Assembly (NCBI GenBank): GCA_951406725.2
Contig: OX597843.1
Location: 15,500,001 to 15,564,000, forward strand
Direction of reading: 5' to 3'
DNA from: Octopus vulgaris
Taxonomy: Eukaryota
DNA length: 64,000 nucleotides
In this document: piece by piece, positions 736-28,165 of the stretch
Numbering within the stretch: the stretch's first letter is position 1
How the letters are laid out: each line of letters starts with the position of its first letter
Made by a program: the position numbers and the translations under genes
Notes under the pieces: model-generated
Database searches by the model: none
The model's input: only the letters and a program-made list of their open reading frames with translations
What the model was told of the DNA's origin: nothing

Positions 736-736
736 A

Positions 737-3059: not shown

Positions 3060-3091
<32 letters not shown>

Positions 3092-4164: not shown

Positions 4165-4236
4165 AATCCCTTTAAATTTGAAAGCCCCGTGAATGTACCT
4201 TCATTGATGGTTGGAATGCTATTGCTCCAAAGAGCT
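4165..4236 (-). CDS. LRR exon 8 of 8 in transcript order: (L)ALWSNSIPTINEGTFTGLSNLKG(L)
   Basis: 72 nt, cag| acceptor, |gtaagt donor, phase 2-2; fits the extracellular LRR consensus LxLxxNxIxxIxxxxFxGLxxLxxL. Confidence 0.92.
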
Positions 4237-6323
4237 CTGTGGTAGTAAAGAAAGAGTAAAATAGATTATATTGAAAATATTTGTGATACGACATCAAACG
4301 CTGTGACTTCAGAATGAAAGGAAGAAAAGGCAGAAAGATAACGAAGAAGAAAAGGAAGAAGAAGAAGGAGGAGGAGGAGGAGGCGAAGAAGAAGAAAAAG
4401 AAGAAGAAGAATTAGTAGAAGAAGAAAGGAGAAGAAGGAGAAGAAAAAGAAGAGGAAGAAGGAATAGGAGGAAAAAGTAGGAGGAGGATGGTAAAAGGGA
4501 AGAAGTAGTAGCGGAAAAAGTAAAAGAAGAAGAAGGAGGAGGAGGAGGATGACAAGTAGATGAAAAAGTAGAAAGAAGAAGAAGAAGGTAGAGGAGGAAA
4601 AAGGAGGAGGAGGAGAATGATGGGGAAGAATAAGTAGGAGAAGATGAAAAAGAAGAAGAAGATGAAGGAGGAGGGGGATGAGAATAACAAAAAGAAGAAG
4701 AAAGAGGAGTAGGAGGAAAAGGAGAAGAAGAAGAATTAGAAGAAGACGCAGAAGAAGAAGAAGAAAAAGAAGCGGGAGAGGAGGGGGAGGAGGAGAATTA
4801 CAAGAAAAAAAGGAGGAGGAGGGGCGGAGAGGATTGGGAAGAAAGAAAGGAGAGGAAAAAAGAAGTAGAAGAAGGAAGAGGAAAAAGGAGGAGGAAGCAA
4901 TGAAGGGGAAAAGTAGGAGTAGAAGAAAAAAAAGAAGAATAAAAAGAAGGAGGAGGAGGAGTAGTTGAAATAATTGAAAGTAGAAGAGGATGTAGGAGAA
5001 GAAGAAGAAGAAATATGTAGAAGCGAGAGAAGAATAAAAGAATAAGGAGAAGGAGAAGAAAAAGAAGAAGAAGAAGAAGAAGACGAAGAAGGAGAAGAAG
5101 AAGAAGAAAAACGAGCAGGAGAGGAGGGGAGGAGGAGAATTACAAGAAGAAAAATGAGGAGGAGGGGCGGAGTGGAGGGGAGAGAATTTAAAGAAGAAAA
5201 TGAAGAATAAGAAGAAGAAAGAAATTAGAAGAGGAAGAAGGAGTAAGGGGAGTAGAAGTAGAAGAAAAGGAAAAGAAGAGAAGAAGAAGAAGAAGAAGAA
5301 GAAGAAGAAGAAGAAGAAGAAGAAGAAGAAGAAGAAGAAGAAGAAGAAGAAGAAGAAGAAGAAGAAGAAGAAGAAGAAGAAGAAGAAGAAGAAGAAGAGT
5401 GAGGAGAAGAAGAAGAAGACGAAGAAGATACATTGAAAATTATGGCGTTCAAGATGAAACTGAAAATGTTCTTAAAATATCAGGAAATAATTCAAGGAGA
5501 GAACGAAAAATTTTGGGCGAGGAGACATGGCTGAAAAATCAGGGAATATACGGAATCAGAAATCAACATATTCAAATGCACTCATACACATTCTTATATT
5601 CATAGTATCAACGACGGAATGCGGTATGCACACTCACATCACACATATTCCCACTCACCCTTGTGGAAATATGGTGAGAGAGATTATTTATTTCATATCG
5701 CTTCATTGTCACAAGAATATTAGAAAACACACGCTTACAAGAAATATATCAGCAGTTTAATTGTATCAGGCCAAATATTGCAGCTTACAAGTACAGTAAG
5801 TATTTCAGGTTTACAGATAGAATGTATGTGACTATATTTTTTGAATTTATATTTTCCGCTTCCACTTCAGTTGCTCTATTACATAAATAACGGGAAGTGA
5901 ATGACACATTTCACACACAGAACTACACTTATATATGAACATACACATATACTTCAGCTAAAAATATTTGATGCAAACATGTAAACTCACAAACGTTACC
6001 ATTTCTAATACAAATTCATATCAAAATCATTGAAATTTGGGGAACAAAAATGAGTTATTGAGATGCGAATTGAAACAAAGCAACTACAATAAAGGAACAT
6101 TATATTTTTCCTATTATTTCACTTTCACTCTCAAATTCTCTCTCTTTCTTTCACATTGTCTCGCATTCTCATATTCTCTTTGTATATTCCTAAATCGTGT
6201 TCATTCTACACATTTGAATTGATTTTGTTTGGTTCAGTCTGAAATTTTATACAATTGTGAGCTTATATATCAGCATCAATTATTACTTTCGGAAAATAGT
6301 ATCAAGAAACTGAAGGAACTTAC

Positions 6324-6395
6324 AATTGTTTTAAATTTGAAAGCCCCGTAAATGCACCTTCTTTGATGGTTGAAATGTTGTTCCCTCGCAGATCT
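6324..6395 (-). CDS. LRR exon 7: (L)DLRGNNISTIKEGAFTGLSNLKQ(L)
   Basis: 72 nt, tag| acceptor, |gtaagt donor, open frame, LRR consensus. Confidence 0.92.
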
Positions 6396-7584
6396 CTATA
6401 GCAGTAAAGAAAGAGTAAAATAGATTATATGGAAAATATTTGTGATACAACATCAAACACTGTGACTTGAGAATGAAAGGAAGAAAGAGAAGAAAGATAA
6501 CGAAGAAGAAAAGGAAGAAGAAGAAGGAAGAGGAGGAGGCGAAGAAGAATTAGAAGAAGAAAGGAGAAGAGGTAGAAGAAAAGGAAGAGCAAGAAGGAAT
6601 AGGAGGAAAAAGGAGGAGGAGGCTGATAAAAGGGAAGAAGATGTAGGAGAAAAAGTAAAAGAAGAAGAAGGAGGGAGAGGAAGAGGAGGAGGAGGAGGGG
6701 GAGGAGGAGGAGGAAGAAAATAACAAGAAGAAGAAGATAAGAATAAGAAAGACGAGGAAGAAGAGGAGGAGAAGTAGATGAAGAAGTAGAAAGAAGAAAG
6801 GAGAAGAAGAAGAAGAAGAAGAAGAAGAAGAAGAAGAAGAAGAAGAAGAAGACGAAAAAGAAGGAGGATGAGGAGGGGGAGGGGAAGAAGAAGAATTGCA
6901 AGAAGAAGGAAGGGAAGAACAAGAAGAAGAAGACGTAGAAGAAGTTGAAGCAGGAAAAAGAAGATGAAGAAGAAGAAGGAGGAGGAGGAGGAGGAGGAGA
7001 AGGAGAAAGAGAATAACAAAAACAGAAGTTAAGAAGGAGAAGGAGGAGGAGGAGAAGATGTAGAAGAAGAAGAAGAAGAAGGAAGAGGAGGAAAAAGGAG
7101 GAGGAGTAGGAGTAAGAAGGGGAGAATAAGTAGGAGAAGATGAAAAAGAAGAAGATGAAGGAGGAGGAGGATGAGAATAACAAAAAGAAGAATATAAGAA
7201 GAAAGAGGGGTAGGAGGAGAAGTAGATGTAGAAGTAGAAAGAAGAAGAATATAAGAAGAAAAAAAAGAAATAGAAGAATGAGAAGAAGAAAAGAAAAAGA
7301 AGGAGGAGGAGGAAAAGAAGAAGAAGAATTAGAAGAAGAAGCAGAAGAAGAAGAAAAGGAGCAGGGGTGGAAGGGAGGAGGAGAATTACAAGAAGAAAAA
7401 GGAGGAGGAGGGGCGGAGAGGATTGGGTAGAAAAAAGAAGATGAAAAAAGAAGTAGAAGAAGGAAGAGGAAAAAGGAGGAGGAAGAGGATGATAGGGAAA
7501 AAGTAGGTGTAGAAGAAAAAGAATAAGAATAAGAATAAGAAGAAGGAGGAGGAAGGGTAGATGAAGAAGTTGAAAGTAGAAGAA

Positions 7585-7619
<35 letters not shown>

Positions 7620-9096
7620 CGAAGAAGAAGAAGAAGAAGACGGAGAAGAAAAAGAAGAAAAAAGAAAAGGAGCAGGAGAGGCGGGGGAGGAAGAGAATTA
7701 CAAGAAGAAATAGGAGGAGGAGGGGCGGAGTGGAGGGGGAAGAGAATTTAAAGAAGAAAATGAAGAATAATAATAAGAAAAAAATTAGAAGAGGAAGGAG
7801 AAGGAGGACCAGGAGGATGAGGTGAAATAGAAGAAAAAGAAAAGAAGAGAAGAAGAAGAAGAAGATGAAGTAAAAGTGGAAGAAGAAGAAGAAGAAGAAG
7901 AAGAAGAAGAAGAAGAAGAAGAAGAAGAAGAAGAAGAAGGAGGAGGAGGCAGAAGACGAAATGACAAAAAGATGATGAAAAAGGCAGAGAAGGAGAAGTA
8001 GAATAAGAAAAAGAACAAAAAGAAGAAGAAGGAGAAGAAGAAGAAGAAGAAGAAGAAGAAGAAGAAGAAGAAGAAGAAGAAGAAGAAGAAGACGAAGAAG
8101 AAGACACATTGAAAATCATGGTGTTTAAGATGAAACTGAAAATATTTACGAAATATCAGGAAATAATTCAAGGATAGAATGAAAAATTTTGGGCGAAAAG
8201 ACATGGCTGAAAAATCAGGGAATATACGGAATCAGAAATCTACATATTCAAATGCACTCATACACATTCTTATATTCATAGTATCAACGACGGAATGCGC
8301 TATGCACACTCACATCACACATATTCCCACTCACCCTTGTGGAAATATGGTGAGAGAGATTATTTATTTCATATCGCTTCATTGTCACAAGAATATTAGA
8401 AAACACACGCTTACAAGAAATATATCAGCAGTTTAATTGTATCAGGCGAAATATTCCAGCTTACAAGTACAGTAAGTATTTCAGGTTTACAGATAGAATG
8501 TATGTGACTATATTATTCGAATATATATTTTCCGCTTCCACTTCAGTTGCTCTCTTACATAAATAACGTGAAGTGAATGATAAAATTCGAAATTGTGTGA
8601 TAATATCGAAACACGAAGGAGAATATTGAAATAATAAATGGAGGAGGATGTGAAATATAAAATAAAAGAATAATATATTCACGTTTCACACAGAACTACA
8701 CATATATATGAACATACACATATACTTCAGCTAAAAATATTTGATGCAAACATGTAAACTCACAAACGTTACCATTTCTAATACAAATTCATATCAAAAT
8801 CATTGAAATTTGTGGAACAAAACTGAGTTATTGAGATGCGAATTGAAACAAAGCAACTACAATAAAGGAACATTATATTTTTCCTATTATTTCACTTTCT
8901 ACCTCAATTTCTCTCTCTTTCTCTCTTTGTGTCTCGCTTACTTACTCCCTCTTTGTATCTTCCTAAATCGTGTTCATTCTACAAATTCGAATTCATTTTG
9001 TTTGATGGAGTCTGAAATTTTATACAATTGTGAGCTTATATATCAGCATCAATTATTACTTTCGGAAAATAGTATCAAGAAACTGAACGAACTTAC

Positions 9097-9168
9097 AATT
9101 CTTTTAAATTTGAAAGCCCCGTAAATGCACCTTCTTTGATGGTTGCAATGTTGTTCGCTCGCAGATAT
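9097..9168 (-). CDS. LRR exon 6: (L)YLRANNIATIKEGAFTGLSNLKE(L)
   Basis: 72 nt, tag| acceptor, |gtaagt donor, open frame, LRR consensus. Confidence 0.92.
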
Positions 9169-10361
9169 CTATAGCAGTAAAGAAAGAGTAAAATAGATTA
9201 CATGGAAAATATTTGTGATGCGACATCAAACACTGTGACTTGAGAATGAAAGGAAGAAAGAAGAAGAAAGATAACGAAGAAGAAAAGGAAGAAGAAGAAG
9301 GAAGAGGAGGAGGCGAAGAAGAATTAGAAGAAGAAAGGAGAAGAGGTAGAAGAAAAAGAAGAGCAAGAAGGAATAGGAGGAAAAAGGAGGAGGAGGCTGA
9401 TAAAAGGGAAGAAGATGTAGGAGAAAAAGTAAAAGAAGAAGAAGAAGGAAGGGGAGGAGGAGGAAAGAGAATAACAAGAAGAAGAAGATAAGAATAAGAA
9501 AGACGAGGAAGAGGAGGAGGAGAAGTAGATGAAGAAGTAGAAAGAAGAAAGAAGAAGAAGAAGAAGAAGGAGAAGAAGAAGGAGAAGAAGAAGAAGAAGA
9601 AGAAGACGAAAAAGAAGGAGGATGAGGAGGGGGAGGAGGAAGAAGAAGAATTGCAAGAAGAAGGAAGGGAAGAACAAGAAGAAGAAGACGTAGAAGAATT
9701 TGAAGCAGGAAAAAGAAGAAGAAGATGAAGAAGAAGAAGGAGGAGGAGGAGGAGGAGGAGAAGGAGAAAGAGAATAACAAAAACAGAAGTTAAGAAGAAG
9801 GAGGAGGAGGAGAAGATGTAGAAGAAGAAGAAGAAGAAGGAAGAGGAGGAAAAAGGAGGAGGAGTAGGAGTAAGAAGGGGAGAATAAGTAGGAGAAGATG
9901 AAAAAGAAGAAGAAGATGAAGGAGGAGGAGGAGGAGGAGGATGAGAATAACAAAAAGAAGAATATAAGAAGAAAGAGGGGTAGGAGGAGAAGTAGATGTA
10001 GAAGTAGAAAGAAGAAGAAGAATATAAGAAGAAAAAAAAGAAATAGAAGAATGAGAAGAAGAAAAGAAAAAGAAGGAGGAGGAGGAAAAGAAGAAGAAGA
10101 AGAAGAAGAAGAAGAGAAGAAGAAGAAAAAGGAGCAGGAGTGGAAGGGAGGAGGAGAATTACAAGAAGAAAAAGGAGGAGGAGGGGCGGAGAGGATTGGG
10201 TAGAAAAAAGAAGATGAAAAAAAGAAGTAGAAGAAGGAAGAGGAAAAAGGAGGAGGAAGAGGATGATAGGGAAAAAGTAGGTGTAGAAGAAAAAGAATAA
10301 GAATAAGAATAAGAAGAAGGAGGAGGAGGAAGGGTAGATGAAGAAGTTGAAAGTAGAAGAA

Positions 10362-10396
<35 letters not shown>

Positions 10397-11984
10397 CGAA
10401 GAAGAAGAAGAAGAAGACGGAGAAGAAAAAGAAGAAAAAAGAAAAAGGAGCAGGAGAGGAGGGGGAGGAAGAGAATTACAAGAAGAAATAGGAGGAGGAG
10501 GGGCGGAGTGGAGGGGGAAGAGAATTTAAAGAAGAAAATGAAGAATAATAATAAGAAAAAAATTAGAAGAGGAAGGAGGAGGAGGACCAGGAGGAGGAGG
10601 AGGAGGACCAGGAGGAGGACGAGGACCAGGAGGAGGAGGAGGACCAGGAGGAGTAGGAGGACCAGGAGGAGGAGGACCAGGAGGAGGAGGAGGACCAGGA
10701 GGAGGAGGAAGACAAGGAGGAGGAAGACCAGGAGGAGGAGGAGGTGAAATAGAAGAAAAGAAGAAAGAAGAAGAAGAAGAAGAAGAAGAAGAAGAAGAAG
10801 AAGAAGAAGAAGAAGGAGGAGGAGGCAGAAGACGAAATGACAAAAAGATGATGAAAAAGGCAGAGAAGGAGAAGTAGAATAAGAAAAAGAACAAGAAGAA
10901 GAAGGAGAAGAAGAAGAAGAAGAAGAAGAAGAAGAAGAAGAAGAAGAAGAAGAAGAAGAAGAAGAAGAAGAAGAAGAAGACGAAGAAGAAGACACATTGA
11001 AAATCATGGTGTTTAAGATGAAACTGAAAATATTTTCGAAATATCAGGAAATAATTCAAGGATAGAATGAAAAATTTTGGGCGAAAAGACATGGCTGAAA
11101 AATCAGGGAATATACGGAATCAGAAATCAACATATTCAAATGCACTCATACGCATTCTTATATTCATAGTATCAACGACGGAATGCGGTATGCACACTCA
11201 CATCACACATATTCCCACTCACCCTTGTGGAAATATGGTGAGAGAGATTATTTATTTCATATCGCTTCATTGTCACAAGAATATTAGAAAACACACGCTT
11301 ACAAGAAATATATCAGCAGTTTAATTGTATCAGGCCAAATATTCCAGCTTACAAGTACAGTAAGTATTTCAGGTTTACAGATAGAATGTATGTGACTATA
11401 TTATTCGAATATATATTTTCCGCTTCCACTTCAGTTGCTCTATTACATAAATAACGTGAAGTGAATGACAAAATTCGAAGTTGTGTGATAATATCGAAAC
11501 ACGAAGGAGAATATTGAAATAAGAAATGGAGGAGGATGTAAAATATAAAATAAAGGAATAATATAGTCACATTTCACACAGAACTACACTTATATATGAA
11601 CATACACATATACTTCAGCTAAAAATATTTGATGCAAACATGTAAACTCACAAACGTTACCATTTCTAATACAAATTCATATCAAAATCATTGAAATTTG
11701 GGGAACAAAAATGAGTTATTGAGATGCGAATTGAAACAAAGCAACTACAATAAAGGAACATTATATTTTTCCTATTATTTCACTTTCTCTCTCAAATTCT
11801 CTCTCTTTCTTTCACATTGTCTCGCTCTCTCATATTCTCTTTGTATATTCCTAAATCGTGTTCATTCTACAAATTTGAATTGATTTTGTTTGGTTCAGTC
11901 TGAAATTTTATACAATTGTGAGCTTATATATCAGCATCAATTATTACTTTCGGAAAATAGTATCAAGAAACTGAACGAACTTAC

Positions 11985-12056
11985 AATTCTTTTAAATTTG
12001 AAAGCCCCGTAAATGCACCTTCTGGGATGGTTGCAATGCTGTTCGCTCCAAGATAT
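11985..12056 (-). CDS. LRR exon 5: (L)YLGANSIATIPEGAFTGLSNLKE(L)
   Basis: 72 nt, tag| acceptor, |gtaagt donor, open frame, LRR consensus. Confidence 0.92.
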
Positions 12057-14835
12057 CTATAGCAGTAAAGAAAGAGTAAAATAGATTATATGGAAAATAT
12101 TTGTGATACAACATCAAACACTGTGACTTGAGAATGAAAGGAAGAAAAAGAAGAAAGATAACGAAGAAGAAAAGAAGAAGAAGAAGGAAGAGGAGGAGGC
12201 GAAGAAGAATTAGAAGAAGAAAGGAGAAGAGGTAGAAGAAAAAGAAGAGCAAGAAGGAATAGGAGGAAAAAGGAGGAGGAGGCTGATAAAAGGGAAGAAG
12301 ATGTAGGAGAAAAAGTAAAAGAAGAAGAAGGAGGGGGAGGAGGAGGAGGAAGAGAATAACAAGAAGAAGAAGATAAGAATAAGAAAGACGAGGAAGAAGA
12401 GGAGGAGAAGTAGATGAAGAAGTAGAAAGAAGAAAGGAGAAGAAGAAGAAGAAGGAGAAGAAGAAGGAGAAGAAGAAGAAGAAGAAGAAGAAGACGAAAA
12501 AGAAGGAGGATGAGGAGGGGGAGTGGAAGAAGAAGAATTGCAAGAAGAAGGAAGGGAAGAACAAGAAGAAGAAGACGTAGAAGAATTTGAAGCAGGAAAA
12601 AGAAGAAGAAGATGAAGAAGAAGAAGGAGGAGGAGGAGGAGGAGAAGGAGAAAGAGAATAACAAAAACAGAAGTTAAGAAGGAGAAGGAGGAGGAGGAGA
12701 AGATGTAGAAGAAGAAGAAGAAGAAGGAAGAGGAGGAAAAAGGAGGAGGAGTAGGAGTATGAAGGGGGAGAATAAGTAGGAGAAGATGAAAAAGAAGAAG
12801 AAGATGAAGGAGGAGGAGGAGGATGAGAATAACAAAAAGAAGAATATAAGAAGAAGAAAGAGGGGTAGGAGGAGAAGTAGATAAAGAAGTAGAAAGAAGA
12901 AGAAGAATATAAGAAGAAAAAAAAGAAATAGAAGAATGAGAAGAAGAAAATAAAAAGAAGGAGGAGGAGGAAGAAGAAGAAGAATTAGAAGAAGAAGCAG
13001 AAGAAGAAGAAAAGGAGCAGGAGTGGAAGGGAGGAGGAGAATTACAAGAAGAAAAAGGAGGAGGAGGGGCGGAGAGGATTGGGTAGAAAAAAAGAAGATG
13101 AAAAAAAGAAGTAGAAGAAGGAAGAGGAAAAAGGAGGAGGAAGAGGATGATAGGGAAAAAGTAGGTGTAGAAGAAAAAGAATAAGAATAAGAATAAGAAG
13201 AAGGAGGAGGAGGAAGGGTAGATGAAGAAGTTGAAAGTAGAAGAAGAAGAAGAAGAAGAGAGAAGAAGAAGAAGAAGACGAAGAAGAAGAAGAAGACGGA
13301 GAAGAAAAAGAAGAAAAAGAAAAAGGAGCAGGAGAGGAGGGGGAGGAAGAGAATTACAAGAAGAAATAGGAGGAGGAGGGGCGGAGTGGAGGGGGAAGAG
13401 AATTTAAAGAAGAAAATGAAGAATAATAATAAGAAAAAAATTAGAAGAGGAAGGAGGAGGAGGGACCAGGAGGAGGAGGACCAGGAGGAGGAGGACCAGG
13501 AGAGGAGGAGGACCAGGAGGAGGAGGAGGACAGGAGGAGGAGGAGAAAAGAAGAAAAGAAAGAAGAAGAAGAAGAAGAAGAAGATGAAGTAGAAGTAGAA
13601 GAAAGAAAGAAGAAGAAGAAGAAGAAGAAGAAGAAGAAAGAGGAGGAGGAGGAGGCAGAAGACGAAATGACAAAAAGATGATGAAAAAGGCAGAGAAGGA
13701 GAAGTAGAATAAGAAAAAGAACAAGAAGAAGAAGAAGAAGAAGAAGAAGAAGAAGAAGAAGAAGAAGAAGAAGAAGAAGAAGAAGAAGAAGAAGAAGAAG
13801 AAGAAGAAGAAGAAGAAGAAGAAGAAGAAGAAGAAGAAGAAGACACATTGAAAATCATAGTGTTTAAGATGAAACTGAAAATATTTTCGAAATATCAGGA
13901 AATAATTCAAGGATAGAATGAAAAATTTTGGGCGAGAAGATATGGCTGAAAAATCAGGGAATATACGGAATCAGAAATCAACATATTCAAATGCACTCAT
14001 ACGCATTCTTATATTCATAGTATCAACGACGGAATGCGGTATGCACACTCACATCACACATATTCCCACTCACCCTTGTGGAAATATGGTGAGAGAGATT
14101 ATTTATTTCATATCGCTTCATTGTCACAAGAATATTAGAAAACACACGCTTACAAGAAATATATCAGCAGTTTAATTGTATCAGGCCAAATATTCCAGCT
14201 TACAAGTACAGTAAGTATTTCAGGTTTACAGATAGAATGTATGTGACTATATTATTCGAATATATATTTTCCGCTTCCACTTCAGTTGCTCTATTACATA
14301 AATAACGTGAAGTGAATGACAAAATTCGAAGTTGAATGATAATATCGAAACACGAAGGAGAATATTGAAATAAGAAATGGAGGAGGATGTAAAATATAAA
14401 ATAAAGGAATAATATAGTCACATTTCACACAGAACTACACTTATATATGAACATACACATATACTTCAGCTAAAAATATTTGATGCAAACATGTAAACTC
14501 ACAAACGTTACCATTTCTAATACAAATTCATATCAAAATCATTGAAATTTGGGGAACAAAAATGAGTTATTGAGATGCGAATTGAAACAAAGCAACTACA
14601 ATAAAGGAACATTATATTTTTCCTATTATTTCACTTTCTCTCTCAAATTCTCTCTCTTTCTTTCACATTGTCTCGCTCTCTCATATTCTCTTTGTATCTT
14701 CCTAAATCGTGTTCATTCTACAAATTTGAATTGATTTTGTTTGGTTCAGTCTGAAATTTTATACATTTGTGAGCTTATATATCAGCATCAATTATCACTT
14801 TCAAAAAATAGTATCAAGAAACTGAACGAACTTAC

Positions 14836-14907
14836 AAGGAGTTTAAATTTGAAAGCCCCGTAAATGCACCTTCTGTGATGGTTGCAATGTTGTTCCGTTG
14901 CAGAGCT
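14836..14907 (-). CDS. LRR exon 4: (L)ALQRNNIATITEGAFTGLSNLNS(L)
   Basis: 72 nt, tag| acceptor, |gtaagt donor, open frame, LRR consensus. Confidence 0.92.
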
Positions 14908-17589
14908 CTATAGCAGTAAAGAAAGAGTAAAATAGATTATATGGAAAATATTTGTGATACAACATCAAACACTGTGACTTGAGAATGAAAGGAAGAAAAA
15001 GAAGAAAGATAACGAAGAAGAAAAGGAAGAAGAAGAAGGAAGAGGAGGAGGCGAAGAAGAATTAGAAGAAGAAAGGAGAAGAGGTAGAAGAAAAAGAAGA
15101 GCAAGAAGGAATAGGAGGAAAAAGGAGGAGGAGGCTGATAAAAGGGAAGAAGATGTAGGGAAAAAGTAAAAGAAGAAGGAGGAGAGGAAGAGGAGGAAGA
15201 GGAGGAAGAGGAGGAGGAGGAGGAAGAGAATAACAAGAAGAAGAAGATAAGAATAAGAAAGACGAGGAAGAGGAGGAGGAGAAGTAGATGAAGAAGTAGA
15301 AAGAAGAAAGGAGAAGAAGAAGAAGGAGAAGAAGAAGGAGAAGAAGAAGAAGAAGAAGAAGAAGACGAAAAAAAAGGAGGATGAGGAGGGGGAGTGGAAG
15401 AAGAAGAATTGCAAGAAGAAGGAAGGGAAGAACAAGAAGAAGAAGCCGTAGAAGAAGTTGAAGCAGGAAAAAAGAAGATGAAGAAGAAGAAGAAGAAGAA
15501 GAAGAAGAAGAAAAGAAGAAGAAGAAGAAGAAGAAGGAAGAGGAGGAAAAAGGAGGAGGAGTAGGAGTAAGAAGGGGAAGAATAAGTAGGAGAAGATGAA
15601 AAAGAAGAAGAAGATGAAGGATGAGGAGGATGAGAATAACAAAAAGAAGAATATAAGAAGAAAGAGGGGTAGGAGGAGAAGTAGATGTAGAAGTAGAAAG
15701 AAGAAGAAGAATATAAAAAGAAAAAAAAGAAACAGAAGAATGAGAAGAAGAAAAGAAAAAGAAGGAGGAGGAGGAAAAGAAGAAGAATTAGAAGAAGAAG
15801 CAGAAGAAGAAGAAAAGGAGCAGGAGTGGAAGGGAGGAGGAGAATTACAAGAAGAAAAAGGAGGAGGAGGGGCGGAGAGGATTGGGTAGAAAAAAAGAAG
15901 ATGAAAAAAAGAAGTAGAAGAAGGAAGAGGAAAAAGGAGGAGGAAGAGGATGATAGGAAAAAGTAGGTGTAGAAGAAAAAGAATAAGAAGAAGAATAAGA
16001 AGAAGGAGGAGGAGGAGGAGGAAGGGTAGATGAAGAAGTTGAAAGCAGAAGAAGAAGAAGAAGAAGAAGAGGAAGGGTAGATGAAGAAGAAGAAGACGAA
16101 GAAGAAGAAGAAGACGGAGAAGAAAAAGAAGAAAAAAGAAAAAGGAGCAGGAGTGGAAGGGAGGAAGAGAATTACAAGAAGAAATAGGAGGAGGAGGGGC
16201 GGAGTGGAGGGGGAAGAGAATTTAAAGAAGAAAATGAAGAATAATAAGAAGAAAAAAATTAGAAGAGGAAGGAGGAGGATGATCTGGAGTAGGACCAGGA
16301 GGAGGACCAGGAGGAGGAGGAGAAATAGAAGAAAAAGAAAAGAAGAGAAGAAGAAGAAGAAGAAGATGAAGTAGAAGTGGAAGAAGAAAAGAAGAAGAAG
16401 AAGAAGAAGAAGGAAAAGAAGGAGGAGGCAGAAGACGAAATGACAAAAAGATGATGAAAAAGGCAGAGAAAGAGAAGTAGAATAAGATAAAGAACAAAAA
16501 GAAGAAGGAGAAGAAGAAGAAGAAGAAGAAGAAGAAGAAGAAGAAGAAGAAGAAGAAGAAGAAGAAGAAGAAGAAGAAGAAGACGAAGAAGAAGACACAT
16601 TGAAAATCATGGTGTTTAAAGATGAAACTGAAAATAATATCGAAATATCAGGAAATAATTCAAGGATAGAATGAAAAATTTTGGGCGAAAAGACATGGCA
16701 GAAAAATCAGGGAATATACGGAATCAGAAATCTACATATTCAAATGCACTCATACACATTCTTATATTCATAGAATCAACGACGGAATGCGGTATGCACA
16801 CTTCACATCACACATATTCCCACTCACCCTTGTGGAAATATGGTGAGAGAGATTATTTATTTCATATCGCTTCATTGTCACAAGAATATTAGAAAACACA
16901 CGCTTACAAGAAATATATCAGCAGTTTAATTGTATCAGGCCAAATATTCCAGCTTACAAGTACAGTAAGTATTTCAGGTTTACAGATAGAATGTATGTGA
17001 CTATATTATTCGAATATATATTTTCCGCTTCCACTTCAGTTGCTCTATTACATAAATAACGTGAAGTGAATGACAAAATTCGAAGTTGAATGATAATATC
17101 GAAACACGAAGGAGAATATTGAAATAAGAAATGGAGGAGGATGTAAAATATAAAATAAAGGAATAATATAGTCACATTTCACACAGAACTACACTTATAT
17201 ATGAACATACACATATACTTCAGCTAAAAATATTTGATGCAAACATGTAAACTCACAAACGTTACCATTTCTAATACAAATTCATATCAAAATCATTGAA
17301 ATTTGGGGAACAAAAATGAGTTATTGAGATGCGAATTGAAACAAAGCAACTACAATAAAGGAACATTATATTTTTCCTATTATTTCACTTTCTCTCTCAA
17401 ATTCTCTCTCTTTCTTTCACATTGTCTCGCTCTCTCATATTCTCTTTGTATATTCCTAAATCGTGTTCATTCTACAAATTTGAATTGATTTTGTTTGGTT
17501 CAGTCTGAAATATTATACATTTGTGAGCTTATATATCAGCATCAATTATTACTTTCGGAAAATAGTATCAAGAAACTGAACGAACTTAC

Positions 17590-17661
17590 AATACGTTTAA
17601 ATTTGAAAGCCCCGTGAATGCTCCTTCTTTGATGGTTGCAATGTTGTTCCCTTCAAGATCT
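17590..17661 (-). CDS. LRR exon 3: (L)DLEGNNIATIKEGAFTGLSNLNV(L)
   Basis: 72 nt, tag| acceptor, |gtaagt donor, open frame, LRR consensus. Confidence 0.92.
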
Positions 17662-20171
17662 CTATAGCAGTAAAAAAAGAGTAAAATAGATTATATGGAA
17701 AATATTTGTGATACAACATCAAACACTGTAACTTGAGAATGAAAGGAAGAAAAAGAAGAAAGATAACGAAAAAGAAAAGGAAGAAGAAGAAGGAAGAGGA
17801 GGAGGCGAAGAAGAATTAGAAGAAGAAAGGAGAAGAGGTAGAAGAAAAGAAGAGCAAGAAGGAATAGGAGGAAAAAGGAGGAGGAGGCTGATAAAAGGGA
17901 AGAAGATGTAGGAGAAGGAGGGGAGGAGGAGGAGGAAGAGAATAACAAGAAGAAGAAGATAAGAATAAGAAAGACGAGGAAGAGGAGGAGGAGAAGTAGA
18001 TGAAGAAGTAGAAAGAAGAAAGGAGAAGAAGAAGAAGAAGGAGAAGAAGAAGGAGAAGAAGAAGAAGAAGAAGACGAAAAAGAAGGAGGATGAGGAGGGG
18101 GAGGGGAAGAAGAAGAATTGCAAGAAGAAGGAGAAGAAGAAGAAGAAGAAGAAGAAGAAGTTGAAGCAGGAAAAAGAAGAAGAAGATGAAGGAGGAGGAG
18201 GAGGAGGAGGAGAATAACAAAAAGAAGAATATAAGAAGAAGAAAGAGGGATAGGAGGAGAAGTAGATAAAGAAGTAGAAAGAAGAAGAAGAATATAAGAA
18301 GAAAAAAAAGAAATAGAAGAATGAGAAGAAGAAAAGAAAAAGAAGGAGGAGGAGGAAAAGAAGAAGAAGAATTAGAAGAAGAAGCAGAAGAAGAAGAAAA
18401 GGAGCAGGAGTGGAAGGGAGGAAGAGAATTAGAAGAAGAAAGAGGAGGAGGAGGGGCGGAGAGGATTGGGTAGAAAAAAGAAGATGAAAAAAAGAAGGAA
18501 GAAGGAAGAGGAAAAAGGAGGAGGAAGATGATGATGGGGAAAAAGTAGGTGTAGAAGAAAAAGAATAAGAATAAGAATAAGAAGAAGGAGGAGGAGGAGG
18601 AAGGGAAGATGAAGAAGTTGAAAGTAGAAGAAGAAGAAGAAGAAGAGGAAGAAGAAGAAGACGAAGAATAAGAAGACGAAGAAGAAGAATAATAAGAAGA
18701 AGACGGAGAAGAAAAAGAAGAAAAAAAAAGGAGCAGGAGAGGAGGGGGAGGAAGAGAATTACAAGAAGAAATAGGGGGAGGAGGGGCAGAGTAGAGGGGG
18801 AAGAGAATTTAAAGAAGAAAATGAAGAATAATAATAAGAAAAATATTAGAAGAGGAAGGAGGAGGAGGACCAGGAGGAGGAGGAGGACCAGGAGGAGGAG
18901 GAGGAGGAGGTGAAATAGAAGAAAAAGAAAAGAAGAAGAAGAAGAAGAAGAAGTAGATAAAGTAGAAGTGGAAGAAAGAAAAGAAGAAGAAGAAGAAGAA
19001 GAAGAAGAAGAAGGAGGAGGAGGAGGCAGAAGACGAAATGACAAAAAGATGATGAAAAAGGCAGAGAAGGAGAAGTAGGATAAGAAAAAGAACAAAGAAG
19101 AAGAAGAAGAAGAAGAAGAAGAAGAAGAAGAAGAAGAAGAAGAAGAAGAAGAAGAAGAAGAAGAAGAAGAAGAAGAAGACCCATTGAAAATCATGGTGTT
19201 TAAGATGAAACTGAAAATATTTTCGAAATATCAGGAAATAATTCAAGGATAGAATGAAAAATTTTGGGCGAGAAGACATGGCAGAAAAATCAGGGAATAT
19301 ACGGAATCAGAAATCAACATATTCAAATGCACTCATACGCATTCTTATATTCATAGTATCAACGACGGAATGCGGTATGCACACTCACATCACACATATT
19401 CCCACTCACCCTTGTGGAAATATGGTGAGAGAGATTATTTATTTCATATCGCTTCATTGTCACAAGAATATTAGAAAACACACGCTTACAAGAAATATAT
19501 CAGCAGTTTAATTGTATCAGGCCAAATATTCCAGCTTACAAGTACAGTAAGTATTTCAGGTTTACAGATAGAATGTATGTGACTATATTATTCGAATATA
19601 TATTTTCCGCTTCCACTTCAGTTGCTCTATTACATAAATAACGTGAAGTGAATGACAAAATTCGAAGTTGAATGATAATATCGAAACACGAAGGAGAATA
19701 TTGAAATAAGAAATGGAGGAGGATGCAAAATATAAAATAAAGGAATAATATAGTCACATTTCACACAGAACTACACTTATATATGAACATACACATATAC
19801 TTCAGCTAAAAATATTTGATGCAAACATGTAAACTCACAAACGTTACCATTTCTAATACAAATTCATATCAAAATCATTGAAATTTGGGGAACGAAAATG
19901 AGTTATTGAGATGCGAATTGAAACAAAGCAACTACAATAAAGGAACATTATATTTTTCCCATTATTTCACTTTCTCTCTCAAATTCTCTCTCTTTCTTTC
20001 ACATTGTCTCGCTCTCTCATATTCTCTTTGTATATTCCTAAATCGTGTTCATTCTACAAATTTGAATTAATTTTGTTTAGTTCAGTCTGAAATATTATAC
20101 ATTTGTGAGCTTATATATCAGCATCAATTATTACTTTCGGAAAATAGTATCAAGAAACTGAACGAACTTAC

Positions 20172-20243
20172 AATACGTTTAAATTTGAAAGCCCCGTGAA
20201 TGCTCCTTCTTTGATGGTTGCAATGTTGTTCCCTTCAAGATCT
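20172..20243 (-). CDS. LRR exon 2: (L)DLEGNNIATIKEGAFTGLSNLNV(L)
   Basis: 72 nt with canonical splice sites; nucleotide-identical to the exon at 17590-17661. Confidence 0.92.
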
Positions 20244-23000
20244 CTATAGCAGTAAAGAAAGAGTAAAATAGATTATATTGAAAATATTTGTGATACAACA
20301 TCAAACACTGTGACTTGAGAATGAAAGGAAGAAAAAGAAGAAAGATAACGAAAAAAGAAAAGGAAGAAGAAGAAGGAAGAGGAGGAGGCGAAGAAGAATT
20401 AGAAGAAGAAAGGAGAAGAGGTAGAAGAAAAAGAAGAGCAAGAAGGAATAGGAGGAAAAAGGAGGAGGAGGCTGATAAAAGGGAAGAAGATGTAGGAGAA
20501 AAAGAAAAAGAGAAGGAGAAGGAGGAGGAAGAGAATAACAAGAAGAAGATAAGAATAAGAAAGACGAGGAAGAGGAGGAGGAGAAGTAGATGAAGAAGTA
20601 GAAAGAAGAAGAAGAAGAAGAAGAAGAAGAAGAAGAAGAAGAAGAAGAAGACGAAAAAGAAGGAGGATGAGGAGGGGGAGGGGAAGAAGAAGAATTGCAA
20701 GAAGAAGGAAGGGAAGAAGAAGAAGAAGACGTAGTAGAAGTTGAAGCAGGAAAAAGAAGAAGAAGATGAAGAAGAAGGAGGAGGAGGAGGAGGAGGAGAA
20801 GGAGAAAGAGAATAACAAAAACAGAAGTTAAGAAGGAGAAGGAGGAGGAGGAGAAGATGTAGGAGAAGAAGAAGAAGAAGAAGGAAGAGGAGGAAAAAGG
20901 AGGAGGAGTAGGAGTAAGAAGGGGAGAATAAGTAGGAGAAGATGAAAAAGAAGAAGAAGATGAAGGAGGAGGAGGAGGAGGAGGAGAATAACAAAAAAGA
21001 AGAAGAAGAAGAAGAAGAAGAAGAAGAGGTAGGAGGAGAAGTAGATAAAGAAGTAGAAAGAAGAAGAAGAATATAAGAAGAAAAAAAAGAAATAGAAGAA
21101 TGAGAAGAAGAAAACAAAAAAGAAGGAGGAGGAGGAAAAGAAGAAGAAGAATTAGAAGAAGAAGCAGAAGAAGAAGAAAAGGAGCAGGAGTGGAAGGAGG
21201 AAGAGAATTAGAAGAAGAAAGAGGAGGAGGAGGGGCGGAGAGGATTGGGTAGAAAAAAGAAGATGAAAAAAAAGAAGTAGAAGAAGGAAGAGGAAAAGGA
21301 GGAGGAAGAGGATGATAGGGAAAAAGTAGGTGTAGAAGAAAAAGAATAAGAATAAGAATAAGAAGAAGGAGGAGGAGGAGGAAGGGTAGATGAAGAAGTT
21401 GAAAGTAGAAGAAGAAGAAGAGGAAGAAGAAGAAGACGAAGAAGAAGAAGAAGAAGAAGACGAAGAAGAAAAAGAAGAAAAAAGAAAAAGGAGCAGCAGA
21501 GGAGGGGAGGAGGAGAATTACAAGAAGAAATAGGAGGAGGAGGGGCGGAGTGGAGGGGGAAGAGAATTTAAAGAAGAAAATGAAGAATAATAATAAGAAA
21601 AAAATTAGAAGTGGAAGGAGGAGGAGGTCCAGGAGGAGGAGGAGGACCAGGAGGAGGAGGAGGACCAGGAGGAGGAGGAGGTGAAATAGAAGAAAAAGAA
21701 AAGAAAAGAAGAAGAAGAAGATGAAGTAGATGAATTAGAAGTGGAAGAAAGAAAAGAAGAAGAAGAAGAAGAAGAAGAAGAAGAAGAAGAAGAAGAAGGA
21801 GAAGGAGGCAGAAGACGAAATGACAAAAAGATGATGAAAAAGGCAGAGAAGGTGAAGTAGCATAAGAAAAAGTACAAAAAGAAGAAGAAGGAGAAGAAGA
21901 AGAAGAAGAAGAAGAAGAAGAAGAAGAAGAAGAAGAAGAAGAAGAAGAAGAAGAAGAAGAAGAAGAAGAAGAAGAAGAAGAAGAAGAAGAAGAAGAAGAA
22001 GAAGAAGACACATTGAAAATCATGGTGTTTAAGATGAAACTGAAAATATTTTCGAAATATCAGGAAATAATTCAAGGATAGAATGAAAAATTTTGGGCGA
22101 AAAGACATGGCTGAAAAATCAGGGAATATACGGAATCAGAAATCAACATATTCAAATGCACTCATACGCATTCTTATATTCATAGTATCAACGACGGAAT
22201 GCGGTATGCACACTCACATCACACATATTCCCACTCACCCTTGTGGAAATATGGTGAGAGAGATTATTTATTTCATATCGCTTCATTGTCACAAGAATAT
22301 TAGAAAACACACGCTTACAAGAAATATATCAGCAGTTTAATTGTATCAGGCCAAATATTCCAGCTTACAAGTACAGTAAGTATTTCAGGTTTACAGATAG
22401 AATGTATGTGACTATATTATTCGAATATATATTTTCCGCTTCCACTTCAGTTGCTCTATTACATAAATAACGTGAAGTGAATGACAAAATTCGAAGTTGA
22501 ATGATAATATCGAAACACGAAGGAGAATATTGAAATAAGAAATGGAGGAGGATGTAAAATATAAAATAAAGGAATAATATAGTCACATTTCACACAGAAC
22601 TACACTTATATATGAACATACACATATACTTCAGCTAAAAATATTTGATGCAAACATGTAAACTCACAAACGTTACCATTTCTAATACAAATTCATATCA
22701 AAATCATTGAAATTTGGGGAACAAAAATGAGTTATTGAGATGCGAATTGAAACAAAGCAACTACAATAAAGGAACATTATATTTTTCCTATTATTTCACT
22801 TTCTCTCTCAAATTCTCTCTCTTTCTTTCACATTGTCTCGCTCTCTCATATTCTCTTTGTATCTTCCTAAATCGTGTTCATTCTACAAATTTGAATTGAT
22901 TTTGTTTAGTTCAGTCTGAAATATTATACATTTGTGAGCTTATATATCAGCATCAATTATTACTTTCGGAAAATAGTATCAAGAAACTGAACGAACTTAC

Positions 23001-23072
23001 AATACGTTTAAATTTGAAAGCCCCGTAAATGCTCCTTCTTTGATGGTTGAAATGTTGTTCCCTTCAAGATCT
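23001..23072 (-). CDS. LRR exon 1: (L)DLEGNNISTIKEGAFTGLSNLNV(L)
   Basis: 72 nt, tag| acceptor, |gtaagt donor; phase-compatible with the signal-peptide/LRRNT exon (TT|A = Leu). Confidence 0.92.
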
Positions 23073-23929
23073 CTATAGCAGTAAAAAAAGAGTAAAATAG
23101 ATTATATGGAAAATATTTGTGATACAACATCAAACACTGTGACATGAGAATGAAAGGAAGAAAGAGAAGAAAGATAACGAAGAATAAAAGGAAGAAGAAG
23201 AAGAATAAGGGGAAGAAGGAGGAGGAGGAGGTTGAGTAGGAGAAGAAGAAGAAGAAGAACAAGAACAAGAAAAAGAAGACATGGAAAATGAAGGAGTTCA
23301 AGATGAAAACCGAAAAAGGATTGAAAGACAGAAGAAGAAGTAGAAGAAGAAGAAAGAAGAAGAAGAAGTAGAAGAAGAAGAAGAAGATAAAGAACAAGAA
23401 GAGGAAGAAGCAGAAGAATAAGAAGAGGAGGAAGAAGAAACAGAAGAAGATAAAGAACAAGAGGAGAAGAAGAAGAAGAAGAAGAAGAAGAAGAAGAGGA
23501 GGAAGAAGAAACAGAAGAAGAAATAAAAGGCGTAGAAGATGAAGATTACAAGAAGAAGAAGAAGAAAAAGAAGAAGAAGACGAAGAAGAAGGAGAAGAAG
23601 AAGACGAAGAATAATAATAAGAAGAAGAATAATAATAAGAAGACCAAGAGGAGGAAGAAGAAGAAGAAGAAGAAGAAGAAGAAGAAGAAGAAGAAGAAGA
23701 AGAAGAAGCAGGAGGAGAAGAATATCTTAACGTGGCAGCCGTTTCATGTTTATTTCCCAATTGACTTGCACAACCTCGAGTATCCGCTTCGCCTCTCTAT
23801 GTACCAACACACACATCCACACACATACACGCACATGTATGCACATATAAGCACATACACACATATACACTCAGAAATATACACACATATGTATATCTAC
23901 CTCTGGGTGCGAGTATGTGTGTGAACCTC

Positions 23930-25761: not shown

Positions 25762-25944
25762 TATCTGTCTCACAAGTATTGGAGATCTTGCAGGAGTTAT
25801 AAAACTTGTCTGATCCTTTCTCCAAAATCGCTAAAATAAAAAGTGTGGAATTTTAACTCAGGTCACAGACAACTGGACAATATACTGCAAGGTGTCTTAT
25901 TCGAGGTCCTCATAGTTGCATTTGTTCATTGAACTGTTATGGTT

Positions 25945-26060
25945 CTTTATTGATCTCGGAAATGAATGACCCAAGGTTGACCTTGGCGGGATTTGAAGTC
26001 AGATTGCCGTGTGTCAGAACGCAATGTATTCTGCTAGACGGTCAAATGATTTGTGCCAAA
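25945..26060 (-). mobile_element. Highly diverged tRNA-SINE fragment
   Basis: aaggttgaccttggcgggatttgaagtcaga is similar to the reverse complement of the SINE core gagttcaattt.cccgaggtcgacttt at 50199-50226. Confidence 0.5.
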
Positions 26061-26256
26061 CCTCGCTCAAGTTATGAACGATGAAATATCTTAACTTATT
26101 AAACAGAACTTCAACTTTACTATTCAACATCTTGAGTTATACGAGATTTAGGGATTCCATTATTGAAACTTTTCTCTTTATTTTACATTAGGATTTCTCA
26201 TTTTGTCAAAACCTTCCAAATGTTTTGAGAAATAGATCTGATCGAATGAATTGATC

Positions 26257-26348
26257 CATTGCATTAATCACCTTAAACTTTCAGTTTTAATCAAATATTC
26301 TAATGAATATTTGATTAAAACTGAAAGTTTAAGGTGATTAATGCAATG
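26257..26348. repeat. Perfect 44-bp inverted repeat with 4-nt loop
   Basis: cattgcattaatcaccttaaactttcagttttaatcaaatattc-taat-gaatatttgattaaaactgaaagtttaaggtgattaatgcaatg; the arms are exact reverse complements. Confidence 0.95.
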
Positions 26349-26779
26349 ATGCAAGCCAATTAACTGGAAATAATCACCTGGAAGAGCAATGTGTTGCAAC
26401 AGAGTATTTGTTATGATTGCATGTATCAAATAATTTCTCTTTTTTATTCTATTCCATTTCTTGAGACATTAAATTTTAATAATTTACTTAAAAATTGCGT
26501 AAGATTTCAGGTGAACGGGGATACATCAATCAGCCGAAACTTCAATTAACCTTCCATAATTTTGTAATAAGGTTTATTGTGTTTGTGATAGGGTAAATTT
26601 TACTGATGACATTCTATCAAAAATAAATTCCTCATAATTTGTTAAAATAACACTATTTTGATTTCTTCACTTAGGTATTTTAAGAATTTGGCAATTTAAG
26701 CGGATCTCGTCATTATCTGCTGTTTAATTCATCTGTTTCATTTTTAATTATAAAAATAATCATTTCTTCTATAGGAACA

Positions 26780-26970
26780 AACCTGAAATTTTGGGAAAGG
26801 GACAAGTCCTTTACATTGATCTCAGAGATAAATTGCTATTTATTTTACCGACTCCAAAAGAATGAAAAACAAAGTCAACCTCGACAGAATTTAAAATCGA
26901 AACGTAAAGACGAACGAAATACCGCTCAACATTTTGTCTGGCGTGCACAACGATTCTGATAGCTCGCTGC
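26780..26970 (-). mobile_element. Diverged tRNA-derived SINE
   Basis: The reverse complement aligns with the head and core of the SINE at 50119-50360 (aaagtcaacctcgacagaattt ... gaaataccgct ... gattctg). Confidence 0.7.
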
Positions 26971-27428
26971 ATATTCTATTATAAAATTAACACAAACAAT
27001 AATTAACAATTATTCTGTGACACGATCAACTGATATTATATCATATTACTGTGATAATAAGCAACAATTCATCTAATTAATGATATAATATAACTATGTG
27101 GAATACACGTTTTCTTAGCACTAAAGTTTTTATACTGTCCGTTCATTGAATATACCGTAAGATTTGATAAGTTCAGACAAATGAAATCAAAGTCAGATAC
27201 TAGTCATATCCAATCTCTGTGTATGCGATGTTATATATTATAAATTCAATATGGTAAGTAACAGTTTATTTGACTTCACAGCAGGTAACATATCGATTTG
27301 TTTTACTCTAACATAAGATTGTGCTTAAAGCTGTGAGATAAACAGCATAAGCGATTAGCTGAGAACATAATCAATGAGAATTTAAAATATTGGATGTGGA
27401 AAATACGTAGAAAGTGTCAAATACTTAC

Positions 27429-27619
27429 AAATATTCAACATTCGTCGGAATTGGTTGTGGAATTGATAGTAAATTGCGACGTGCACAATTTATTTCCGTT
27501 GTAAGTGAATTGCAATTACATGTGTTGCATATATCTGAATCAGCTTGAGTCTCCAAAAACAATATCGTACACAGTATCAACGCAAGAGACCGTCTATATG
27601 ATACTACGTGGTGAAACAT
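27429..27619 (-). CDS. First coding exon of a secreted or cell-surface LRR protein: signal peptide + LRRNT cap
   Basis: Encodes MFHHVVSYRRSLALILCTILFLETQA-DSDICNTCNCNSLTTEINCARRNLLSIPQPIPTNVEY(L): a hydrophobic leader, then CxxCxC...INC...LxxIPxxIP (LRRNT). Acceptor (t)11acag| lies just upstream of 27639, leaving 20 nt before the ATG; donor TT|gtaagt is phase 2. Confidence 0.92.
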
Positions 27620-28165
27620 ATTGCCAGGCGTAGATTTATCTGTAAAAAAAAAAGGAAATGTCAGAGATTTCAATGTTATTAACTTCAAATTGCAGATTCT
27701 CCGAAGCAACTAAAATTCACCCCTGGTCCACATGACAAATATATTTTTGTTTTCGTGATTGGATATTTAAAGCTAAAAAATTAAATTTCGATAAATTAGT
27801 GTGAAGAAATTTATAAAAATATTATAGCTTTAACGCGTAATAATATCAAAGAAAACACCAAACACACACACACAAACACAAACGCACTCCTACACACATC
27901 TGTAACCATCTTCGGGGGTGGGGTCTAATATATTTACAAAACTAGTGAACCATGAGTTTCGTAGACCCTAAATACGCAGTGGTTGTAAACCCGGTTGGGT
28001 CGTTAAATCCGATGGGACCCCACAAGCAACTGTATGGTAACAAAGGATTTTTCCTGTACCCCAGTTTTAGAAGCGTTCATACAAAGTTTTCCTTAAATGA
28101 ACTATCATGATTTCATTTTACTTATTTTTTTTTTACTGAAAACAAGAATAAAGCATGAACGTAAA

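Follow-up and report, generated by a model that had tools for sequence, protein, structure and literature searches.

The locus raises the question of what kind of gene, if any, is carried by a tandem repeat array in the Octopus vulgaris genome that was at first sight taken for a satellite. The array lies in a 64,000-nucleotide stretch of DNA (the window), for which the original prediction described a hidden gene with one head exon and a row of exons encoding single leucine-rich repeats (LRR cassettes).

Architecture of the cassette array

The signal peptide/LRRNT exon and the eight 72-nt minus-strand LRR exons were all recovered where they had been placed, the latter flanked by AG and GT and in phase 2 (Table 1). 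All splice sites are intact, and the joined exons are open, with exactly the translation given before. Since eight of the eight units hold an exon that matches the LRR consensus at 7/7 positions and shares a common donor, chance is excluded. The head exon, in which the signal peptide was read by eye, is 100% identical to the public model P0001. An upstream 5' UTR exon, present in paralog contigs, was not found within the window, and the final array unit (736-4164) has no exon inside it. Two of the cassettes have close counterparts elsewhere: the paralog at G000:C31:5035065 has a cassette whose DNA is identical to exon 5, and the acceptor-side intron of exon 8 is identical to that of cassettes in three other paralogs. 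A candidate cassette at window position 26975 proved false and was dropped, as was one at C31:2889585; no Rfam family was found in the 64-kb window.

Two parts of the first description need correction. The array is no simple satellite, but a segmental repeat of units with degenerate GAA tracts, and the gene is not hidden, as public models already span parts of the locus: P0001 consists of the head, LRR7, LRR8 and downstream exons, while P0023 holds seven of the eight cassettes and has a wrong start. The units differ from each other by 0.8-7.0% over about 1 kb of non-GAA sequence (28 pairs), those of LRR1-3 by only 0.8-1.1%, and are thus distinct, which excludes an assembly expansion of one or two units.

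Table 1. Features of the gene inside the window (window positions) and to its left (positions on G000:C30)
Feature	Position	Strand	Remarks
First coding exon	27429..27639	-	Short 5' UTR, ATG at 27619, predicted signal peptide, Cys-capped LRRNT; AG/GT ends
LRR cassette exon 1	23001..23072	-	72 nt, phase 2; AG-GT
LRR cassette exon 2	20172..20243	-	72 nt, phase 2; same sequence as exon 3
LRR cassette exon 3	17590..17661	-	72 nt, phase 2
LRR cassette exon 4	14836..14907	-	72 nt, phase 2
LRR cassette exon 5	11985..12056	-	72 nt, phase 2
LRR cassette exon 6	9097..9168	-	72 nt, phase 2
LRR cassette exon 7	6324..6395	-	72 nt, phase 2
LRR cassette exon 8	4165..4236	-	72 nt, phase 2
Tandem segmental array	736..23722		2.2-2.9 kb units: degenerate GAA tract, exon, ~1 kb unique intron
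Intron leaving the window	1..4164	-	Runs toward rest of gene
Terminal LRR	G000:C30 15498109
LRRCT	G000:C30 15494354
Cys-rich exons	G000:C30 15489309 and 15487289
SEA-like	G000:C30 15486141-15475139
GAIN	G000:C30 15473132-15462232		Four exons
GPS	G000:C30 15461835
TM1	G000:C30 15460896
TM2	G000:C30 15455529-15455421
Assembly gap	G000:C30 15455279-15455378		Starts 41 bases past TM2 donor

Receptor class

The gene continues to the left of the window, where the LRRCT and transmembrane exons were to be sought and where LRRCT and TM1-2 were indeed found. There the terminal LRR is followed by LRRCT, Cys-rich, SEA-like, GAIN, GPS and TM1-2 exons and then by an assembly gap. Up to TM2 the chain comprises 23 coding exons, including the signal peptide/LRRNT exon and nine LRR exons. 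As these downstream parts are those of an adhesion GPCR, the receptor class, previously given as unknown, can be assigned: judged by its sequence, the gene encodes an adhesion GPCR of octopus with an LRR head. The VLR, TLR and LGR architectures that had been invoked for it are not supported, and its LRR head is joined to GAIN, GPS and TM1-2 instead. The order of elements is that of an adhesion GPCR, with four GAIN exons, then GPS, then TM1. The paralog P0003, which shares its GPS exon with the window's gene at 100% identity, matches the Pfam families GPS (E 1e-10) and 7tm_2 (E 7e-34); the Pfam GAIN match of P0001 is weak (E 0.0016, under the cut-off). Of the putative secretin-class 7TM, TM1-2 are present before the gap, and TM3-7 are present in paralogs, as the 7tm_2 match indicates. 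For the window's gene itself, TM3-7 were not found in the 55 kb past the gap, and no unassigned TM3-7 block turned up in G000 among the 150 of 227 candidates that were scored.

Structure prediction points the same way for the SEA/GAIN part, of which the best PDB match is ADGRG6 (6v55; Foldseek E 7e-4, Z 9.9). The label 'SEA-like' refers to this match and to a predicted beta-alpha-beta-beta-alpha-beta fold; SEA-only structures were not prominent in the structure comparison of this part. The ESM Atlas gave no usable match for the Cys-rich or SEA-like parts. The Cys-rich domain, predicted with a pLDDT below 50, ends in CCxGxxCN, which we take to mark a 'Ly6/three-finger-like' candidate. A TLR, with its single TM and subsequent TIR, was rejected because Cys-rich, SEA-like and GAIN parts come after LRRCT and because TIR does not figure among the 25 top families found in 31 members. 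An LGR or glycoprotein-hormone receptor, in which a rhodopsin-class 7TM comes directly after the LRR/hinge part, was rejected because the family carries GPS in 16 and 7tm_2 in 15 of its 31 members.

Cassette turnover and variation of the predicted binding face

The gene belongs to a family that may be confined to octopus: in word-limited searches 22 of 22 matches name Octopus, as do 27 of the 28 names in a second set, in which one name was cut off. Family members carry GPS and/or the adhesion 7TM, some of them together with LRRs. The head exon has 35 matches, 15 of them at 90% identity or more, and 152 cassettes lie in 18 arrays, 146 of them intact. The number of LRR exons ranges from 3 to 22 across 13 fully spanned copies. 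LRR number is therefore variable between gene copies, and the view of a modular, recently expanding gene is supported. Among type-A cassettes 81 of 85 are distinct, only 9 of 39 intron-matched cassette pairs lie within one gene, and all four gametes occur in 155 of 190 site pairs. The window's cassettes have no identical counterpart among 46 units taken from O. sinensis models.

Most of the variation falls on the six positions marked x in LxxLxLxxNxL, the predicted concave face, and entropy is 2.6-3.1 bits at positions 1, 3, 4 and 23 of type-A cassettes. Selection was counted on intact type-A cassettes after removal of g12, g14 and g16, which left 85, or of g11 and g13 in addition, which left 78, and divergence was compared in 39 disjoint cassette pairs matched on intron distance. 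In these pairs pN is 0.33 at concave and 0.028 at framework positions, with an intron distance of 0.033, one tenth of the concave value. Concave nonsynonymous divergence also exceeds exon-wide synonymous divergence (p=2e-9), and framework pN/pS is about 0.2-0.3. Synonymous divergence, however, is high as well, at 0.30 in concave and 0.13 in framework codons versus 0.033 in the intron, and concave nonsynonymous and concave synonymous change do not differ significantly (p=0.33). Diversifying selection at concave positions is thus suggested, not proven, and part of the concave signal could stem from exon alleles retained since long ago or from conversion of short patches.

We consider it probable that the array supplies an octopus adhesion GPCR with a variable LRR head, built from one-repeat exons that gene copies acquire, lose and pass to one another, likely diversifying a surface for the recognition of changing targets. 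Because the cassettes are symmetric, with 72 nt and phase 2, their gain or loss would leave the frame intact. The 92-99% identity of the 2-3 kb units may drive misaligned recombination, and cassettes would likely turn over by unequal crossing-over together with gene conversion. Diversifying selection may then retain new variants of the binding face, while the introns would be homogenised; the target might be non-self or a polymorphic cell surface.

Alternative readings of the locus

The signalling end of this copy looks damaged or unassembled, and a decaying duplicate has to be considered, in which the GPCR tail is becoming a pseudogene and the LRR array is intact only through youth and conversion. 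Missing TM3-7 past the gap would agree with such decay. The HRM domain is absent, and the GPS reads RLK, a non-canonical motif, in place of the H-x-S/T that is canonical for adhesion-GPCR autoproteolysis (PMC13062082); lacking both, the copy would, to judge from these residues, not self-cleave. Among 16 proteins read, the GPS motif is RLK in 4, HLT in 11 and YLT in 1, and P0054 gave no GPS motif match. As assembled, a T run of one GAIN exon has lost a single base, which leads to a stop at codon 707, and GAIN frameshifts occur in four of six young GPS-bearing copies. All five GAIN deletions, however, are located within homopolymer runs, where long-read consensus errors typically fall. The deletion in the window's gene may therefore be an assembly error, and we see about an even chance that it is real, in which case the gene would yield either an ectodomain of 706 residues free of the membrane or a transcript that is degraded, and no signalling receptor. 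Further points weigh against decay: in O. sinensis the HRM-less model P0024 is open across the deletion position, and P0065 shares RLK and the 4-residue loop deletion with the window's gene and has an open 7TM. The nine LRR exons are all intact, framework pN/pS is only about 0.2-0.3, and we regard decay as rather unlikely.

It is possible, if on the unlikely side, that cells skip cassettes to produce many isoforms by combinatorial splicing, in the manner of Dscam or of brown-algal ROCO genes, for which LRR-exon splicing has been reported (PMC11378527). Symmetric exons permit in-frame skipping, and the concave beta-strand crosses the exon junction, with two variable residues in the upstream and four in the downstream exon, so that any novel junction would yield another binding strand. 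P0001 and P0023 use different cassette sets at this locus, and RefSeq models of O. sinensis list 13 isoforms for one locus and 7 for another, with 24-residue units as the difference between isoforms. Several of these isoforms, however, hold hybrid units, with the 5' part from one cassette and the 3' part from another, which is the pattern expected from mis-mapped reads of near-identical paralogs, and neither a cassette-to-cassette junction nor the junction 27429>23072 was seen in reads. RNA-like contigs, from sequencing runs that are only presumed to be RNA, span the head exon edge to edge in spliced form and derive from a paralog (8 of 8 differences), not from the window's copy. Run X1 left the head exon uncovered, which speaks neither for nor against expression. 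A neural or sensory wiring code, in which variable heads label cell identity in the arm nerve cord, suckers and skin as clustered protocadherins would, is a further possible but doubtful reading. The closest folds include the Nogo receptor, LRRTM2 and NGL1. Group 3 adhesion GPCRs are reported as enriched in axial nerve cord, suckers and skin of O. bimaculoides, and gill expression is also described (PMC6408891), a pattern to which a neural or adhesive role fits as well. Yet the fast turnover between sister species, the broken cassettes (7/153) and the fact that most heads lack a young GPS exon (4 of 17 have one) would fit an arms race better. Somatic assembly of cassettes in single cells, as in VLRs, is extremely improbable. 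Cassettes of 24 residues, variation of the concave face and a fold resembling that of hagfish VLR (Z 26.3, rmsd 2.6, 249 aligned) recall that system, but the germline gene is a complete spliced chain with AG/GT sites on every cassette, whereas VLR germline genes are described as incomplete, with non-exonic cassettes that are assembled by conversion.

The variable, exon-exchanging receptor head therefore remains our preferred reading. A bolder version of it, which we hold to be improbable, would be a germline-encoded variable adhesion GPCR system in which dozens of genes swap one-LRR exons and combinatorial skipping makes a new binding strand at each junction. A young clade would have diverged into two forms, signalling receptors deficient in cleavage and soluble binders free of the membrane, with a division of labour like that of cell-surface receptors and antibodies and with the window's gene between both forms. 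The available portions of the review literature name no diversified recognition receptor in cephalopods, and a shuffled LRR head with a variable binding face on a GPCR family is a testable candidate for immunity, allorecognition or sensory-cell identity. Since public models break these loci up or cut them short, such variation is missed in expression studies.

Comparison with known systems

ADGRG6/GPR126, the source of the public gene name, shares with the window's gene the succession of SEA, GAIN and GPS, and with its family the secretin-type 7TM as well. ADGRG6 carries CUB/pentraxin and HormR domains; in the window's copy, LRRs and a Cys-rich domain are present and both HRM and H-x-S/T are absent. 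LGRs and glycoprotein-hormone receptors likewise bear an LRR ectodomain on a GPCR, and there are sequence matches to LGR4/5. In LGRs the 7TM is of the rhodopsin type and the number of LRRs is fixed, unlike in the window's family with its GAIN, 7tm_2 and variable LRR number. Phase-2 one-LRR exons are known from gonadotropin receptors, as cited in PMC11378527.

The expansion of octopus LRR adhesion GPCRs itself is already in print (Ritschard et al. 2019, PMC6408891), and one-LRR exons are known as well. Group 3 of that study, of which the window's family is a candidate member, contains octopus class-B receptors with GPS/7tm_2, with LRRs in 5 of its 22 sequences; tandem clusters and branch-level positive selection were reported, with no positively selected site in the expanded groups. 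The available part of that paper makes no mention of one-LRR exons, the range of 3-22, concave hypervariability, the RLK GPS or 7TM-less heads, and in that of a preprint (PMC13193013) octopus serves as outgroup only. Searches of open-access main texts aimed at this combination of features did not find it.

Agnathan VLRs share with the window's gene the order SP-LRRNT-(24-aa LRR)n-LRRCT and a variable concave face. They are assembled somatically, out of incomplete cassettes, by deaminase-driven conversion, whereas the window's gene is germline-complete, spliced and joined to GAIN. The proposed likeness to the one-LRR-per-exon shuffling of brown-algal ROCO genes holds: both have one LRR per 72-bp phase-2 exon in variable number, and exon shuffling, gene birth and death and diversifying selection are reported for ROCO (PMC3341825, PMC11378527). 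ROCO proteins are cytoplasmic ROC-COR GTPases, whereas the window's gene encodes the extracellular head of an adhesion GPCR in an animal, and splice variants are reported for the former (PMC11378527), while exon symmetry makes skipping a candidate in the latter. Together with the ROCO genes of brown algae and the VLRs, the window's family is a case of convergence on cassettes of 24 residues.

Structure and class of the receptor gene

The gene in the window is real and in part already annotated; it belongs to a known expansion, and its variable-cassette head is apparently undescribed. The original prediction of a head exon (signal peptide and LRRNT) followed by tandem single-LRR exons with intact splice sites was borne out by a six-frame scan and direct reading: eight LRR exons, each 72 nt long and in phase 2, lie on the minus strand where predicted, all of them and the head exon have AG/GT ends, and the joined frame is open. 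The array units are 2.2-2.9 kb long, each with a degenerate GAA tract. In about 1 kb outside this tract they diverge by 0.8-7.0%, and because of this divergence they are real distinct copies and not an assembly expansion of one or two units. Units LRR1-3, counted from the head exon, are 0.8-1.1% apart and, judged by this closeness, the youngest of the array. Upstream of the gene (window 31700-64000), a block of 13-14.5 kb with retroelement ORF pieces occurs about three times, in copies that are 95-98% identical, and holds three copies of the stretch that the public model P0013 uses as first exon.

Positions of the head exon and of retroelement ORF pieces within the window
Feature	Position	Strand	Basis
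Head exon	27639-27429	minus	six-frame scan, direct reading
Retroelement ORF piece in repeat block	40310-37174
Retroelement ORF piece in repeat block	62186-60918
Retroelement ORF piece in repeat block	47683-46409
Retroelement ORF piece in repeat block	35107-33926

The receptor class, previously given as unknown, is adhesion GPCR. We traced the rest of the gene by fetching 100 kb to the left of the window (G000:C30:15500001-15564000) and aligning relatives, which revealed exons for a terminal LRR, an LRRCT, two Cys-rich, three SEA-like and four GAIN exons, a GPS, TM1 and TM2. With the window exons this makes 23 coding exons, and a 100-N assembly gap begins 41 bases past the last. TM3-7 were found neither in the 55 kb beyond this gap nor as an unassigned block among the 150 of 227 candidates scored in the assembly, and the signalling tail is uncertain. 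The public O. vulgaris model P0001, named adhesion GPCR G6-like, matches the head exon at 100% identity, and a second model, P0023, contains 7 of the 8 window cassettes, with a start that differs from P0001. The paralog P0003 carries Pfam GPS and 7tm_2 domains; its aligned 3' blocks show 92-99% identity, apart from two short ones at 88-89%. In AlphaFold models the LRRs form a solenoid, and a further part folds as a ferredoxin-like domain with helices after it; ADGRG6, the best PDB match to the latter part (E 7e-4; Z 9.9, rmsd 21.6, 155 aligned), lends modest support to the class.

State of the signalling end

The window gene has no HRM exons, which older paralogs and the membrane-free models do carry. 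Its GPS motif reads RLK, as opposed to the canonical H-x-S/T (PMC13062082), so that self-cleavage is predicted to be lost; 11 of 16 proteins have HLT. The motif RLK recurs in the O. sinensis model P0065, which has an open 7TM, as does the loss of 4 residues behind TM2; this marks both as real variants. One GAIN exon is 1 base short in a T run, which leads to a stop at codon 707. Five such deletions occur among four of the six young GPS-bearing copies, every one in a homopolymer, and the O. sinensis model P0024 has an open frame at the position of the T run; assembly error and real deletion appear about equally probable.

The GPS exon of the young clade (G000:C30:15461686-15461835, stretch L004, and paralogs) is 97-100% identical across six copies and reads RLK, not HLT, likewise in O. 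sinensis. Locus G000:C31:2543501-2593500 (L081-L083, L091-L092) is an apparent chimera: its older, HRM-bearing ectodomain includes a first GAIN exon 76% identical to that of the window gene, and identity rises to 95-100% from the second GAIN exon through TM2, with a 12-nt TM2 deletion common to both.

Gene family and cassette exchange

A search of the genome yielded 35 head-exon matches (15 at >=90%), 17 LRRCT exons at >=92% and six GPS exons at >=97%, four of them behind a young head. The 18 fetched regions hold 152 cassettes in 18 arrays, 146 of them intact, plus one broken cassette missed by the scan. The predicted copy-number variability holds between gene copies: the 13 copies whose sequence is complete between the head and the terminal LRR have 3, 3, 4, 5, 6, 6, 6, 7, 9, 10, 13, 13 and 22 LRR exons. 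Several public models for other heads stop after HRM and SEA-like domains, without a membrane part.

The paralog at G000:C31:4193001-4233000 (L053-L056) has 13 cassettes and an assembly gap, with no LRRCT match nearby. Model P0015 shares several of these cassettes and joins LRRs to ankyrin repeats; it is either chimeric or wrongly joined. In some family members (O. sinensis models P0017 and P0019) the Cys-rich domain is repeated two or three times. At G000:C9:28.28-28.89 Mb, about 20 weak 7TM matches cluster, most within open frames of 400-700 codons, which suggests that single-exon class-B GPCR genes lie there in tandem.

Cassettes evidently move between genes, since window LRR5 is identical to one cassette on contig C31 and the intron upstream of LRR8 to introns in three further genes. 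Cassette pairs matched on intron distance also mostly link different genes, only 9 of 39 falling within a single one. All four gametes were seen in 155 of 190 variable-site pairs, a count to which recurrent mutation adds. Among 46 O. sinensis units compared, none is identical to a window cassette and seven are identical to other O. vulgaris cassettes.

Variation at the predicted binding face

Among intact cassettes of the type-A class, 81 of 85 are distinct. Entropy reaches 2.6-3.1 bits at positions 1, 3, 4 and 23 and is near zero in the framework. Positions 1, 3, 4, 6, 22 and 23 correspond to the six x sites in LxxLxLxxNxL, which form the concave beta-strand of an LRR; this strand straddles the exon junction. 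In the window gene alone, pN is 0.37 at these positions and 0.046 elsewhere (introns 0.04-0.05). Across 39 disjoint pairs, pN is 0.33 at concave and 0.028 at framework positions, with introns at 0.033 (concave N against all exon S, p=2e-9). In the same pairs, pS (concave codons 0.30, framework 0.13) also exceeds the intron level, and N against S within concave codons gives p=0.33; both count against explaining the pattern by selection alone. One reason may be that exon alleles predate their introns, which were homogenised; another, that codons hit more than once inflate pS. Diversifying selection on the concave positions is likely, though not formally shown. Within the head exon, the LRRNT segment (window 27429-27530) also varies between paralogs, at a few clustered codons, and the signal peptide is nearly fixed.

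Expression and proposed mechanism

The family is transcribed and spliced. None of the sequencing runs is recorded as RNA. In three of four runs, contigs over the head exon end at or near its splice sites and carry foreign letters past the acceptor. These letters map to several places on contigs C31 and C6, and from two of the places a family member lies 29-36 kb downstream. Because all 8 differences in the contig from run X5 match paralog C31:3785 exactly, we credit transcription to the family rather than to the window copy. Cassette skipping may occur; in the RefSeq sets of O. sinensis, isoforms are told apart by whole cassettes, yet hybrid units among them suggest mis-mapping.

The cassettes are symmetric and lie in near-identical units, their number varies, genes share them, and the binding face is variable. 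In the germline, unequal crossing-over and conversion among units probably reshape the LRR arm, and selection probably favours new concave surfaces. The product would bind variable targets, and might signal without GPS cleavage or, if truncated, act as a soluble binder.

Comparison with known systems

Our literature search found no paper on this cassette architecture in octopus; supplements, including the tables of Ritschard et al., could hold exon structures. That article (Ritschard et al. 2019, PMC6408891) describes an octopus-specific aGPCR expansion in which 5 of 22 members have LRRs; it reports expression from nerve cord, suckers, skin and gill, and no selection at the level of sites. In brown-algal ROCO genes, likewise, each 72-bp phase-2 exon encodes one LRR, and shuffling, selection and splicing are reported for them (PMC3341825; PMC11378527); phase-2 LRR exons are noted for gonadotropin receptors (PMC11378527). 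VLRs, unlike the octopus cassette genes, are assembled somatically (PMC13428168).
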